Of a DNA stretch of 64,000 nucleotides, positions 8,132 through 37,917 are shown in pieces. The stretch's first letter is position 1, and every line of letters begins with the position of its first letter. Both the position numbers and the translations under genes were made by a program. The notes below the pieces were generated by a model, which was given only the letters and a program-made list of their open reading frames with translations, was not told the origin of the DNA and searched no databases. Origin of the DNA: Escherichia coli (GTDB lineage: Bacteria > Pseudomonadota > Gammaproteobacteria > Enterobacterales > Enterobacteriaceae); assembly GCF_029227855.1 (NCBI RefSeq), contig NZ_CP074356.1; one strand, given 5' to 3'.

Positions 8132-8170
8132 AATAAAAAAGCCCCCGGAAGGTGATCTTCCGGGGGCTTT
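8132..8170 (-). terminator. his operon attenuator (leader terminator hairpin plus U-run)
   Basis: Minus-strand transcript reads GAGAAAGCCCCCGGAAGAUCACCUUCCGGGGGCUUUUUUAUUG between hisL and hisG; classic his attenuator architecture. Confidence 0.85.
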
Positions 8171-8231
8171 CTCATGCGTTCATGCACCACTGGAAGATCT
8201 GAATGTCTTCCAGCACACATCGCCTGAAAGA

Positions 8232-8282
8232 CTAGTCAGGATGATGGTGATGATGGTGGTGTTTAAATTGAACGCGTGTCAT
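8232..8282 (-). CDS. hisL: his operon leader peptide with seven consecutive His codons
   Basis: Reverse complement of 8232-8282 encodes MTRVQFKHHHHHHHPD-stop. Confidence 0.9.
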   Translation of the reverse strand: MTRVQFKHHHHHHHPD

Positions 8283-10949: not shown

Positions 10950-11215
10950 AGAAAAATTATTATGACAAGCCTCTCATTCTCTTGTCATTTCCCCCCCATT
11001 TAGGCACAATGCGCCGCTGTCAAAAAATGACTAAAAACCGACGTTTCATCAGCGTCGGTTATTTTTTGCTTCAAACCAATCATTCATACCAAGAGGCCGG
11101 GCTTCGTACCGGATAGATATTTACTAAAAATCGACAGTTGTTGTCGCTGAGGAATCCAAAAAAATGGGGCAATTTTTTGCTTACGCGACGGTTATCACCG
11201 TAAAGGAGAATGACC

Positions 11216-35199: not shown

Positions 35200-35401
35200 C
35201 GAAATAATCTGGCAGTTATAAACGTTTATTTTTTTACTGTTTGTGATCTGCTTTCCGAACTTATTAAAAAGTCTCCCGCTTCATGGAGGCTTTTGTTATT
35301 GTCCTTTGTGCTTCTCGTCAGTAAATCATCAGGGATGATGTGAAGATTAAATGTAAAACAATTGTTTTGCTATAACAATAAATTAACTGGGAGGTTTTAT
35401 C

Positions 35402-36316
35402 ATGATTTCTGCGGCGACACTTAATTCAGAACTCATTAATAAAATCGCGCAGGATTTTGCGCAGGCGACCAGCCTTGCGGTTGTCGTGGTCAATATTCAC
35501 GGCGATGAAATTTCCGAGCTGTTTAACTTCACTCCATTTTGTCAGATGATGCGGCAACACCCTCAGCTAAGCACTCGATGTCGCATGAGCGATCGTTGTG
35601 GGGGCCTGGAAGCCTCTAAATCCGATCAGCCTTGTATTTATCGCTGTCATGCCGGATTAACCGATTTCTCTATTCCACTGGTAATCGCCGGGCATTTAGT
35701 CGGTTTTGTATTGTGCGGGCAAGTTCGTCTGCGTAATGATGATGTCGATTTGGTCGATATTCTGAATGTCGATGATTGCTGGCAGGCAGATCCCGAATTA
35801 CTTAATGAATTCCGCAAAGTTCCTGAGATGGATTACTCAAGAGTTATGGCCTCTGCTGATTTGTTGAAGTTGATTGTGGAAAATTGCCTCAAAAAACAAC
35901 TCAATTTTGTGGTTATTAAAGAGAACAAATTTCAGTCAGATTCGGTGCGCCAGACTCGTGCGCCTAATCCCCACGACAATAAAATGAAAAAAGCTTTACG
36001 CTATATTGATGCGCATTTATCAGACGATTTGCGTCTGGAAGATGTCGCCTCGCACGTTTATCTAAGTCCTTATTATTTCAGTAAGTTATTCAAGAAATAC
36101 CATGGAATCGGTTTTAATGCGTGGGTAAACCAACAACGGATGGCCAGCGCTCGTGAGTTACTGTGCCATAGTGACTGGAGCATCGCCAGTATTGCGCGTA
36201 ATTTAGGTTTTTCGCAAACCAGTTATTTTTGCAAAGTTTTCCGTCAGACTTATCAGGTTACGCCGCAGGTGTATCGACAGCAAGTGAGTGAAAATGCGGT
36301 GATGGAAACGGTATAG
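35402..36316 (+). CDS. pocR: AraC-family regulator PocR (activator of pdu and cob)
   Basis: 304-aa ORF MISAATLNSELINKIAQDFAQATSLAVVVVNIHGDEISELFNF... with C-terminal AraC-type HTH. Confidence 0.9.
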   Translation: MISAATLNSELINKIAQDFAQATSLAVVVVNIHGDEISELFNFTPFCQMMRQHPQLSTRCRMSDRCGGLEASKSDQPCIYRCHAGLTDFSIPLVIAGHLVGFVLCGQVRLRNDDVDLVDILNVDDCWQADPELLNEFRKVPEMDYSRVMASADLLKLIVENCLKKQLNFVVIKENKFQSDSVRQTRAPNPHDNKMKKALRYIDAHLSDDLRLEDVASHVYLSPYYFSKLFKKYHGIGFNAWVNQQRMASARELLCHSDWSIASIARNLGFSQTSYFCKVFRQTYQVTPQVYRQQVSENAVMETV

Positions 36317-36419
36317 AGTAAATGCCCCAAAAAAAGAGGACGGTTTAAATAAACTCTGCAATGAATAATTAACGTTATTTACCTGTTATGGGAAAAGTGA
36401 AATCAGCTCATAACATACG

Positions 36420-36640
36420 CTGACAGGTGTGGCACATTTGTGCCTGGGAAGAGGGTGAAAATCCCTCGCAGCCCCCGCTGCTGTAATGCTGACAAACCCG
36501 AAAATGCCACTGATCGCGAGATTGGGAAGGTCGGGAGAGGATGACGCTAAGCCAGAAGACCAGCCAGTCAGTCAATACCAACAACTTCGGTGGGAAGTGG
36601 GTTGCCCGGAAGCGTCCGGTAGAGTACCGGCGCGTCTTTA
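36420..36640 (+). ncRNA. Cobalamin (B12) riboswitch-like leader, presumed remnant of the cob operon leader
   Basis: Contains GGTGAAAATCC, GCAGCCCCCGCTGCTGTAA, GCCACTG, GGGAAGG and a B12-box-like AAGCCAGAAGACCAGCC in the order expected for cobalamin riboswitches (by recalled similarity to the btuB/cob leaders). Confidence 0.65.
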
Positions 36641-36803
36641 TACCCCTACCACCCTGAAAGGATCAGGGTATGGCGGCATCATTTAGTTCTTTCATCGCAG
36701 TGCCGACAGGCACCAGGGCTGCACTTAAGGTGTGGCAATCTTGTTTCATGGCTCATCAACCAGACCGCCATTACAGGAAACTAAGTGGAGGGCGAGAGGC
36801 ATG

Positions 36804-37238
36804 AAAACGATAAAACCCGAATCGATAGCTCTTTTTTGCCTCTTATCTGGAGATGTGGATCTGGCGAAACATTTGGCTGAAATATTGCCAATAACTTGTT
36901 TTGTTGGTGAGGACTGGCAGCAAGATTTCCAGCCTCTTGACGGTGGGCCTGTGCAATCGTTATCAGATGTGTATGGCGATTATTCAGTGCTGCTATTGAT
37001 AGCAGCTGAAAGCGAGATATCCGTACCAGAATGGCTCGCTCATTCTGAAGGAACGACGGTAATTGTGATTGCAGAACACAATACCCGTTTGCTGACTGGT
37101 CCGGCTGGTGGGGCTGTAGCATTGATCCATTATCTGAATGAAATCTGTCATTCCAGAGAAACCGCTGTCAATGACGCATTTTGTCGTACGTTAACACGAG
37201 GAAGTCTGGCTATTCCGCAATGCCATCTTCTTTCGTAA
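36804..37238 (+). CDS. Hypothetical protein downstream of the B12 riboswitch (not recognisable as a Cbi enzyme)
   Basis: ORF MKTIKPESIALFCLLSGDVDLAKHLAEIL... preceded by GGAGGG ~9 nt upstream; the six-frame ORF extends to 36732. No family recognised by eye. Confidence 0.3.
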   Translation, partial: KTIKPESIALFCLLSGDVDLAKHLAEILPITCFVGEDWQQDFQPLDGGPVQSLSDVYGDYSVLLLIAAESEISVPEWLAHSEGTTVIVIAEHNTRLLTGPAGGAVALIHYLNEICHSRETAVNDAFCRTLTRGSLAIPQCHLLS

Positions 37239-37371
37239 TGGATTGAGAATGCTGGATTTTTAATTATATTACGCGCAGTATTAATCGCGTAAATGTTTTG
37301 CGGTCAGCAACGGTGGGGGATCCATTGTTCTGTTCAATGAATACCATCATACAATTGAATCAGGAGTCGGT

Positions 37372-37917
37372 ATGATGATTTTGGTGACAGGTGGAGCACG
37401 GAGCGGGAAGAGTCGCCACGCAGAGGCGCTTATTGGGGACTCTTCACAGGTTCTGTATATCGCCACCTCGCAAATCCTTGATGATGAGATGGCTGCACGG
37501 ATAGAACATCATCGGCAAGGCCGCCCGGCGCACTGGCGCACGGTGGAGCGCTGGCAACATCTTGATGAATTAATTCATGCAGACATTAACCCGCATGAAG
37601 CTGTGTTGCTGGAATGCGTTACAACAATGGTGACTAATCTGTTGTTTGATTATGGCGGCGATAAAGACCCTGATGAATGGGATTATCAGGCGATGGAACA
37701 GGCGATTAATGCTGAGATTCAGTCGTTGATTGCTGCCTGCCAACGTTGCCCCGCGAAGATTGTATTAGTGACTAACGAAGTGGGAATGGGGATTGTGCCG
37801 GAGAGTCGTCTGGCACGACATTTTCGTGATATTGCCGGGCGGGTAAATCAGCAGCTGGCCGCTGCGGCAAATGAAGTGTGGCTGGTGGTTTCGGGTATTG
37901 GAGTAAAAATCAAATGA
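37372..37917 (+). CDS. cobU: Adenosylcobinamide kinase / adenosylcobinamide-phosphate guanylyltransferase
   Basis: 181-aa [25 protein letters not shown] (P-loop). Confidence 0.92.

Follow-up and report, generated by a model that had tools for sequence, protein, structure and literature searches.

A cobalamin riboswitch retained ahead of cob-operon remnants in pdu-positive Escherichia coli

What does a cobalamin (vitamin B12) riboswitch control when the cbi genes that would be expected behind it are gone? The question is raised by a stretch of Escherichia coli DNA of 64,000 nucleotides (nt) from contig NZ_CP074356.1 of assembly GCF_029227855.1, referred to below as the window. In strain NRZ14408, which is 100% identical over the region, RefSeq gives the order pduEDCBA, pduF, pocR, cobalamin riboswitch, hypothetical protein, cobU, cobS, cobT, ldtA and tRNA-Asn; cobUST, the genes of cobinamide salvage and nucleotide-loop assembly, are the only intact genes left to regulate. 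The explanation that we consider probable is that this is the control region of a collapsed cob operon, in which translation of remnant open reading frames (ORFs) is gated by B12 and feeds into expression of the cobUST salvage genes, a mechanism that we infer from homology and conservation.

The riboswitch and the reading frames behind it

The features on which the argument turns are as follows, all on the + strand (aa, amino acids; RBS, ribosome-binding site).

35402-36316, +: pocR, AraC-family activator of the pdu/cob regulon (NCBIfam NF047788; RefSeq agrees)
36317-36407, +: shortened spacer between pocR and the riboswitch, 91 nt, with a shared promoter-like block missing
36408-36582, +: cobalamin riboswitch aptamer (Rfam RF00174, full model, 1-189 of 189)
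36583-36669, +: expression platform, with the RBS hairpin and the platform blocks ACCAACAACTTCGGTGGGAAGTGGG and CCCTACCACCCTGA
36670-36804, +: leader ORF of 44 codons, a cbiA'-'cbiF remnant starting at the former cbiA ATG
36801-37238, +: cbiG' ORF, 145 aa, CbiG N-terminal domain plus a short novel tail (NF004463, tblastn)
37219-37375, +: decayed 3' remnant of cbiP, approximately its last 50 codons, frameshifted (blastn, peptide match)
37243-37270, +: sigma-70 promoter-like site, TTGAGA-16-TATATT, with 10/12 consensus matches, just after the cbiG' stop
37372-37917, +: cobU (NF004469 CobU, 247 bits; RefSeq agrees)
37914-38657, +: cobS (RefSeq agrees)
38669-39748, +: cobT (RefSeq agrees)

The original prediction, made from the DNA letters, had read the leader behind pocR as a cobalamin riboswitch, and both halves of that statement are borne out. 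PocR scores 553 bits against its equivalog model NF047788 (cutoff 500), and the covariance-model scan that had been proposed as a check, run with Rfam over the whole window, gives a significant full-length match to RF00174 (109.4 bits vs a gathering score of 31.5, E 1.7e-26) at the same site where the Prokaryotic Genome Annotation Pipeline (PGAP) places a cobalamin riboswitch in RefSeq records. The B12 box GCCACTG (RNA GCCACUG) lies within the Rfam alignment at 36506-36512, and at six predicted aptamer pairs compensatory double changes keep the pairing across six taxa. Orthologous aptamers from the divergent Escherichia lineage E69, E. albertii, E. fergusonii, Salmonella and Citrobacter score 106.9-112.9 bits, and the score is undiminished (109-113 bits) throughout the four Escherichia species, in which we count E. 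coli, E69, E. albertii and E. fergusonii.

The expression platform is preserved as well. Its RBS hairpin, ACCCUGA-AAGGA-UCAGGGU at 36651-36669, holds the Shine-Dalgarno sequence AAGGA in the loop, with the stem ending one base before the ATG at 36670; it is found in both the minimum-energy and the centroid folds and is invariant in all six aligned sequences from Escherichia, Salmonella and Citrobacter; upstream of it, the blocks ACCAACAACTTCGGTGGGAAGTGGG and CCCTACCACCCTGA likewise show no change (6/6). Taken from 36343 or 36375 to 36678, the leader has ~80% nucleotide identity to the Salmonella and Citrobacter cob leaders over 304-336 nt, an identity that covers aptamer, platform and the first cbiA codons up to codon 3, and the locus shares with Salmonella the hairpin, the B12 box and the position between pocR and cobUST-ldtA. 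Judged by its score, by a core with B12 box and compensatory pairs, and by a platform tied to a start site, with a function assigned through orthology, the riboswitch is a plain RF00174 member and an orthologue of the classic, experimentally studied cob-operon leader of Salmonella and Citrobacter; binding of adenosylcobalamin (AdoCbl) and repression by the Escherichia riboswitch are predicted by orthology with the Salmonella cbiA leader.

The riboswitch had also been called an orphan. This does not describe it well, as the aptamer still adjoins the cbiA start codon and RBS hairpin, which open a 44-codon remnant ORF. In E. coli, E69 and E. albertii the stop of this leader ORF overlaps the start of cbiG' as ATGA (36801-36804 in the window), while in E. 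fergusonii the leader ORF extends 20 nt into cbiG and uses the ancestral cbiF stop, which implies that the original deletion would have been an in-frame cbiA'-'cbiF fusion. The alignment to Salmonella continues through cbiA codon 3, and as the peptide MAASFSSFIAVPTGT is similar to CbiA MAARHHAFILAGTGS, the cbiA-derived part may extend to about codon 15. At the other end, 27 nt (36774-36800) align with the 3' end of cbiF. In the 95 nt that lie between (36679-36773), no similarity to the Salmonella or Citrobacter cbiA 5' or cbiF 3' ends is detectable (z ~0-1.8), so that the first deletion junction is not placeable more precisely. No stop interrupts the leader ORF in any of the four Escherichia species, where it always ends at or just inside the cbiG' start, and its codon positions vary equally (13:14:17).

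Inside the leader ORF, at 36718-36746, a T-rich run comes after a weak hairpin. E. coli, E69 and E. albertii all retain the run (TCTTGTTTC, TCGTTTTTC or TCTTTTTTC), but conservation of the stem is poor; the element could be a relic or a weak attenuator.

The second ORF is 145 aa long from the ATG at 36801 or 168 aa from a GTG at 36732 and ends at 37238, and no cbiA-cbiP genes lie between riboswitch and cobU, as the original prediction had noted. The same source saw in it an unidentified ORF with no recognisable similarity to Cbi proteins, and here we come to a different result. Residues 1-118 match positions 1-125 of 351 in the CbiG equivalog model NF004463 (E 5.9e-19), and in tblastn comparisons with Salmonella and Citrobacter, nucleotides 36801-37136 correspond to CbiG residues 1-119 of 351 from a shared start codon, at 43-45% identity (E 6e-23 to 2e-25). 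From this homology, the syntenic position and the frame following cbiF, the ORF is identified as the N-terminal third of cbiG, still in place and in the ancestral frame, after 27 nt of the cbiF 3' end. It is a fragment rather than a CbiG protein: the score of 68.4 bits falls far below the equivalog cutoff of 546 (NF004463), and it contains residues 1-119 only of a protein built of three domains (N, middle and CobE-like C-terminal), all of which (CbiG_N, CbiG_mid and CbiG_C) are present in the intact homologues of contigs L006-L009 and L019. RefSeq names the ORF 'hypothetical protein' or 'cobalamin biosynthesis protein', and the 'hypothetical protein' between riboswitch and cobU in hundreds of E. 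coli genomes can thus be corrected to a CbiG N-terminal remnant.

Collapse of the cob operon and its age

To place the remnants we used as references the cob operons of Salmonella enterica (contig L008) and of a Citrobacter amalonaticus-like contig (L009), both reached by walking from PocR homologues. The alignment to Salmonella and Citrobacter cbi DNA that had been suggested earlier maps the segments between riboswitch and cobU to the ends of cbiA, cbiF, cbiG and cbiP. For cbiP, blastn matches the last 117-147 nt of the gene (Salmonella, E 2e-8; Citrobacter, E 6e-5; L008 15411-15527 and L009 15381-15527), one frame matches CbiP residues 454-478, and the final 10 codons are matched by the frame of the stub, whose C-terminal peptide is similar to the reference CbiP IYTIMQQHRESV*. 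The TGA of the stub overlaps the cobU ATG at 37372-37375, and between species the segment carries indels of 6, 1 and 11 nt; it is a remnant and not a gene because the frame is broken. It was therefore sound to suggest that the short frame ending at the cobU ATG is the 3' stub of a gene once located before cobU; by DNA and C-terminal alignment, this gene is cbiP. The longer ORF had been said to be followed directly by cobU, which is imprecise: the two are separated by a 133-nt spacer (37239-37371) that contains cbiP remnant and the promoter-like site.

Upstream of the riboswitch the locus has also been shortened. In the four Escherichia species the aptamer begins 88-121 nt after the pocR stop, vs 218-375 nt in a Klebsiella-type locus, Citrobacter, Salmonella and Hafnia. 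A promoter-like block, CAATAAATTGT(C/T)ATAGCGCAA, is common to Salmonella, Citrobacter and the Klebsiella-type locus (TTGTCA-16-TAAAAT in Salmonella, L008 898-925), and presumably the mapped promoter of the Salmonella cob leader, which we take to be ~468 nt long, would fall at this block. Sequence comparison finds the block absent between pocR and riboswitch in all four Escherichia species, and a promoter scan of the window detects no sigma-70-like site upstream of the aptamer, so that the separate cob promoter of the Salmonella-type locus is lacking here. Because the aptamer is only 88-121 nt past pocR, the riboswitch may be co-transcribed with it, and as the usual cob promoter region is missing, transcription probably comes from pocR. 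A small AT-rich hairpin directly after the pocR stop is missing in the four Escherichia species as well.

This arrangement, with the aptamer ~90 nt past the pocR stop and no cob promoter block intervening, makes it conceivable that the riboswitch acts mainly from the 3' part of the pduF-pocR transcript, where it would adjust pocR and pdu expression to B12 supply via termination or RNA stability. The short spacer and missing block in all four species and the lack of a sigma-70-like site agree with such a role, as does the retention of the riboswitch wherever pocR and pdu are kept, including in species without cobUST; in Listeria, B12 riboswitches reportedly control pocR through antisense RNA, as Mellin et al. 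are said to have found in 2013. However, the element here is on the sense strand and downstream of pocR, where an OFF switch would not obviously alter PocR synthesis, and its platform is the unchanged cbiA hairpin that sequesters an RBS. We regard a mainly 3' role as improbable, and continue with a riboswitch that gates translation of what follows it.

Taken together, synteny and homology show that what remains here, in a pdu-positive E. coli, is the 5' control region of a collapsed enterobacterial cob operon: the Salmonella-type order pduA..., pduF, pocR, cob leader, cobUST, ldtA is present save for the deleted cbi genes. Three old deletions, positioned by the same alignments, account for the layout. 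One shortened the gap between pocR and riboswitch and evidently removed the promoter-like block; the second joined the first cbiA codons (three certain, perhaps ~15) to the last cbiF codons; and the third fused cbiG, cut at about codon 120-130, to the final ~50 codons of cbiP. The latter two are internal deletions that removed cbiA-cbiF and cbiG-cbiP, since the surviving segments map in synteny to cbiA, cbiF, cbiG and cbiP. Where Salmonella has 17 cbi genes, the window thus has a 44-codon cbiA'-'cbiF ORF, a 145-aa cbiG fragment and a cbiP stub, and, also unlike Salmonella, a 91-nt spacer after pocR without the upstream promoter-like block.

The same breakpoints and ORF layout are found in E69 (L003), E. 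albertii (L004, L013) and E. fergusonii (L005), and since they are common to these lineages and E. coli, the collapse is older than the split of these Escherichia species. What lies downstream has since changed. E. fergusonii has no cobUST between its cbiG' ORF (156 aa there) and ldtA (L005 10919-12128), and in two E. albertii strains cobS is intact, but cobU is a pseudogene with a 107-nt deletion and a frameshift, and cobT is missing (L004 950-2390, L013 7826-9270). E. fergusonii and both E. albertii strains nevertheless retain an intact riboswitch (112.8-112.9 bits) and open remnant ORFs.

Within E. coli the locus is in the minority. At least 80% of 36300-37400 is present in ~643 of 5,426 complete genomes, and pocR and the riboswitch occur together in 640-645, being kept or lost as a pair; DNA resembling cbiH-cbiL is in none of the 5,426. 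Nearly all other E. coli, including MG1655 derivatives, have the 3' part only, from ~37067-37112 onward, which PGAP calls an incomplete 'cobalamin biosynthesis protein' pseudogene. K-12, in which IS5 adjoins this leftover, has the same cbiG'/cbiP junction, spacer, promoter-like site and cobUST, with 95% identity over 37112-37400, but differs from the window strain in keeping only the last ~290 bp, without pdu, pocR, riboswitch, leader ORF and the first ~90 codons of cbiG'. Other strains have different left endpoints inside cbiG', one example being a fusion to a pduV remnant.

Two further contigs touch on this distribution. In E. coli Combat13F7 (NZ_CP019245.1) only 36534-36700 of the riboswitch and platform is left, beside an annotated ATP:cob(I)alamin adenosyltransferase gene. 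A contig labelled as a Citrobacter sp. metagenome-assembled genome (MAG), L002 (DXKH01000123.1), shows the collapsed layout of Escherichia and, from pocR through cbiG', 97.9% identity to the window; probably it comes from E. coli and was binned with Citrobacter by mistake.

Remnants of cbiA, cbiF, cbiG and cbiP that are still in place show that the Escherichia ancestor had a Salmonella-like pdu-pocR-cob locus and lost cbi by internal deletions. They bear on what is said to be the classical account of B12 synthesis in enterics, the 'loss and reacquisition' put forward, reportedly, by Lawrence and Roth in 1996.

Constraint on the riboswitch and the remnant frames

Decay of the locus is uneven, with riboswitch and platform conserved while their flanks drift. 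The values below are identities between the four Escherichia species and ratios of nonsynonymous to synonymous substitution (dN/dS).

Aptamer: identity 87-94%
Expression platform: identity 85-93%
Leader-ORF body: identity 36-83%
cbiG' beyond its first 60 nt: identity 58-80%
cbiG', whole ORF: dN/dS 0.30-0.57
cbiG', residues 1-70: dN/dS 0.22-0.43
cbiG', last 26 codons: dN/dS 0.6-0.85
pocR, cobU, cobS, cobT and ldtA: dN/dS 0.03-0.13

The simplest account of such a locus would be that the interval from pocR to cobU is a non-functional relic, still decaying, with a riboswitch that regulates nothing useful. A relic would explain the absence of the cbi genes, the deletion, with no evident harm, of the riboswitch and most of cbiG' from 88% of E. 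coli genomes, the fast evolution of both cbiG' and the leader ORF, and a separate promoter-like site ahead of cobU. It is hard to square with the pattern of conservation. Identity is 85-94% in aptamer and platform vs 36-80% in the adjacent remnant, at a synonymous divergence (dS) in neighbouring genes that runs from 0.3 to >1.5 between Escherichia lineages, and neither the undiminished Rfam scores in four species nor the invariant RBS hairpin would be expected. Both ORFs have also been kept open: in all four species cbiG' has suffered indels of 3, 9 and 9 nt only, all in-frame, and a simulation of neutral substitution on a crude tree gives P = 2e-4 for at least 130 cbiG' codons remaining open in all four lineages. 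We therefore give little credence to a pure relic.

If the frames have been kept, the peptide itself may be the reason. In this alternative the CbiG N-terminal fragment is a domesticated small protein under B12 control, with a part in propanediol use or corrinoid handling, and the riboswitch is retained for the fragment and not for cobUST. Several results point this way. In codons 1-66 or 1-70 of cbiG' the dN/dS of 0.22-0.43 lies below a permutation null of ~0.7 conditioned on an open frame (p <=0.004 for two pairs with E. albertii), frame 0 has the lowest ratio of the three frames, and among five E. coli strains the ratio of nonsynonymous to synonymous diversity (piN/piS) is 0.34 (0.06 for cobU); there is, from these sequence comparisons, some amino-acid-level constraint on the N-terminus. 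Fragment and riboswitch persist in E. fergusonii and E. albertii despite loss or decay of cobUST, and in ~88% of E. coli genomes they were lost with pdu and pocR, which would fit a pdu-linked role. The fragment ends near a domain boundary and gives an alpha/beta AlphaFold (AF2) model of moderate quality (predicted local distance difference test, pLDDT, 72; predicted template-modelling score, pTM, 0.66), for which the most relevant neighbour in the PDB is the S. solfataricus CbiG homolog 3eeq (probability 0.97, template-modelling (TM) score 0.49, E 0.08).

Other observations speak against a domesticated protein. Identity to true CbiG is 43-47% where PocR is 88-89% identical, dN is ~10x that of neighbouring genes, and the C-terminal 26 codons look neutral (0.6-0.85). 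For the E. coli-E69 pair the N-terminal ratio is not significantly below the permutation null. The GATGIAVRV(L/I)APL motif of true CbiG has been destroyed, and differently in each lineage, and the Escherichia sequences share a 7-residue deletion. A Pfam scan of the ORF gives no CbiG match, CbiG_N included, and a chance Nup96 match only, the homology coming to light with NCBIfam and by direct comparison; a PDB sequence search returns nothing significant and a word-indexed protein search only short Escherichia proteins, with no intact CbiG. An exhaustive search of representative proteins yields 33 matches but no stand-alone CbiG_N family outside Escherichia, as the short matches from elsewhere are frameshifted true CbiG. 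Natural variants in E. coli and Shigella, too, include internal deletions, early stops and fusion with the leader ORF. On balance a domesticated small protein seems rather unlikely to us, if less so than a pure relic, and B12-gated translation that serves cobUST is still the reading that we prefer.

Among these variants, one joins the leader ORF to cbiG' in a fusion of 188 aa; others have lost 3 codons in frame and stop earlier, at 136 aa, and still others, 95-96 aa long, are shortened by deletions that are internal or at the 5' end. Most of the changes leave the frame intact.

A parallel is found in Hafnia (L019-L022). As in Escherichia, pocR is followed by a riboswitch (110.8 bits) and an in-frame cbiA'-'cbiF fusion that overlaps the start of cbiG, after which comes cbiG. 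The Hafnia fusion is 115 aa long and keeps CbiF residues 171-255 (85 codons) at 67-69% identity, and its cbiG is full length (354 aa, three Pfam domains) and followed by a cobT fragment or unrelated genes; no other cbi genes were found within 9-10 kb of the locus in the contigs examined. Three contigs with 1.5-2% nucleotide divergence share this layout (L019 3779-5480; L020-L022). With 44-47% identity to CbiG of Salmonella and Citrobacter and 37-41% to that of Hafnia, Escherichia CbiG' stands nearer to the former, and for this reason the Hafnia collapse looks independent of the Escherichia one; a shared origin of the two was rejected on these distances. In Edwardsiella, Yersinia, the Klebsiella-type locus, Citrobacter and Salmonella, cbiA directly follows the leader. 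That Hafnia has independently kept a full-length cbiG behind a riboswitch and a cbiA'-'cbiF fusion, other cbi genes being absent nearby, would also suit a role for CbiG sequences under B12 control, and two in-frame fusions that keep the cbiG overlap are suggestive, although statistically not strong.

These results leave room for a broader proposal, to which we attach no more than tentative weight: that gated start, leader ORF and CbiG N-terminal ORF form a selected module, kept translatable since before the Escherichia species split and paralleled in Hafnia, either because the CbiG N-domain has a B12-regulated role in propanediol metabolism or because a chain of translated relic ORFs is needed to relay riboswitch control to distal genes; the module would thus persist even where cobUST has decayed.

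From the riboswitch to cobUST

The gated ATG opens the leader ORF, which in turn overlaps the start of cbiG' with its stop codon; what the riboswitch most likely gates is therefore the translation of two remnant ORFs in succession, ending 134 nt before cobU. With AdoCbl bound to the aptamer, the hairpin holding the Shine-Dalgarno sequence would stay closed and initiation at the ATG at 36670 would be prevented; the leader ORF and the overlapping cbiG' ORF would then go untranslated, and the untranslated RNA would be terminated or degraded ahead of cobUST. With little B12 available and the pocR/pdu region being transcribed, both ORFs would be translated in turn, giving extra cobUST expression on top of that from a constitutive promoter just upstream of cobU. 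In this model transcription would enter by read-through from pocR, and B12 control would reach cobUST via polarity or RNA stability.

There are several points that weigh against this model. The promoter-like site at 37243-37270 lies between cbiG' and cobU and is conserved in all E. coli, so that cobUST is perhaps independent of read-through; the site is identical in K-12, O104:H4, O8:H28 and the window strain and less conserved in E69 and E. albertii, and it may be a candidate constitutive, riboswitch-independent cobU promoter, in a region where promoter-like sites, as a count, are not above shuffle expectation. The 134 untranslated nt between the cbiG' stop and cobU mean that coupling to cobU is not direct, and across the region there is no composition resembling a Rho site (not C-rich and G-poor; C/G mostly <1). 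Riboswitch and open ORFs persist in E. fergusonii, without cobUST, and in E. albertii, with a cobU pseudogene and no cobT, and as the module is kept where functional cobUST is lacking, control of these genes is not the whole reason for its retention. Finally, a model in which cbiG' is purely a translated spacer does not predict the dN/dS of its first 70 codons. These points give some weight to a residual function of the CbiG' protein or to an action of the riboswitch on the pocR transcript.

A precedent for control through a gated short ORF comes from Mycobacterium tuberculosis, where a B12 OFF riboswitch of ppe2 gates a short upstream ORF (uORF), and the downstream gene depends on translation of this uORF through termination-reinitiation (PMC11260477). 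The two systems are alike in that the stop of the gated ORF overlaps the next start, as ATGA in E. coli, E69 and E. albertii and by 20 nt in E. fergusonii. They differ in that the sequences are unrelated and the aptamers belong to different subclasses, in that the dependence is experimental in ppe2 and deduced in E. coli, and in that the E. coli 'uORFs' are remnants of biosynthetic genes.

A literature search, which did not take in Lawrence & Roth 1995/1996, produced no account of the collapsed operon or of riboswitch control of cobUST in E. coli. In large part the finding is ordinary gene decay, a known riboswitch in a decayed operon that is already annotated in RefSeq, and the interest that remains lies in the long preservation of the riboswitch and of both remnant frames, and in the parallel in Hafnia. 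It follows from the presence of the locus that pdu-carrying E. coli have a second cobalamin riboswitch besides that of btuB. If the frames are functional, the locus would be a natural case in which relic ORFs have redirected a riboswitch from de novo synthesis to the genes of salvage.

Some other features of the window may be mentioned. Between pduF and pocR, at 35258-35341 (-), Rfam places the enterobacterial small RNA STnc230 (71 bits), which is at the same place in E69, L002 and E. fergusonii. An EFASI RNA (100.8 bits) at 48543-48670 (-) and a C4 antisense RNA (62 bits) at 50104-50192 (-) suggest, by their presence, a phage-related or mobile element in the window. Three tRNA genes with identical scores (tRNA-Asn in RefSeq) lie around nac and cbl at 40804-45106, a His leader is found at 8133-8256 (-), and STnc240 at 10995-11069 (+).

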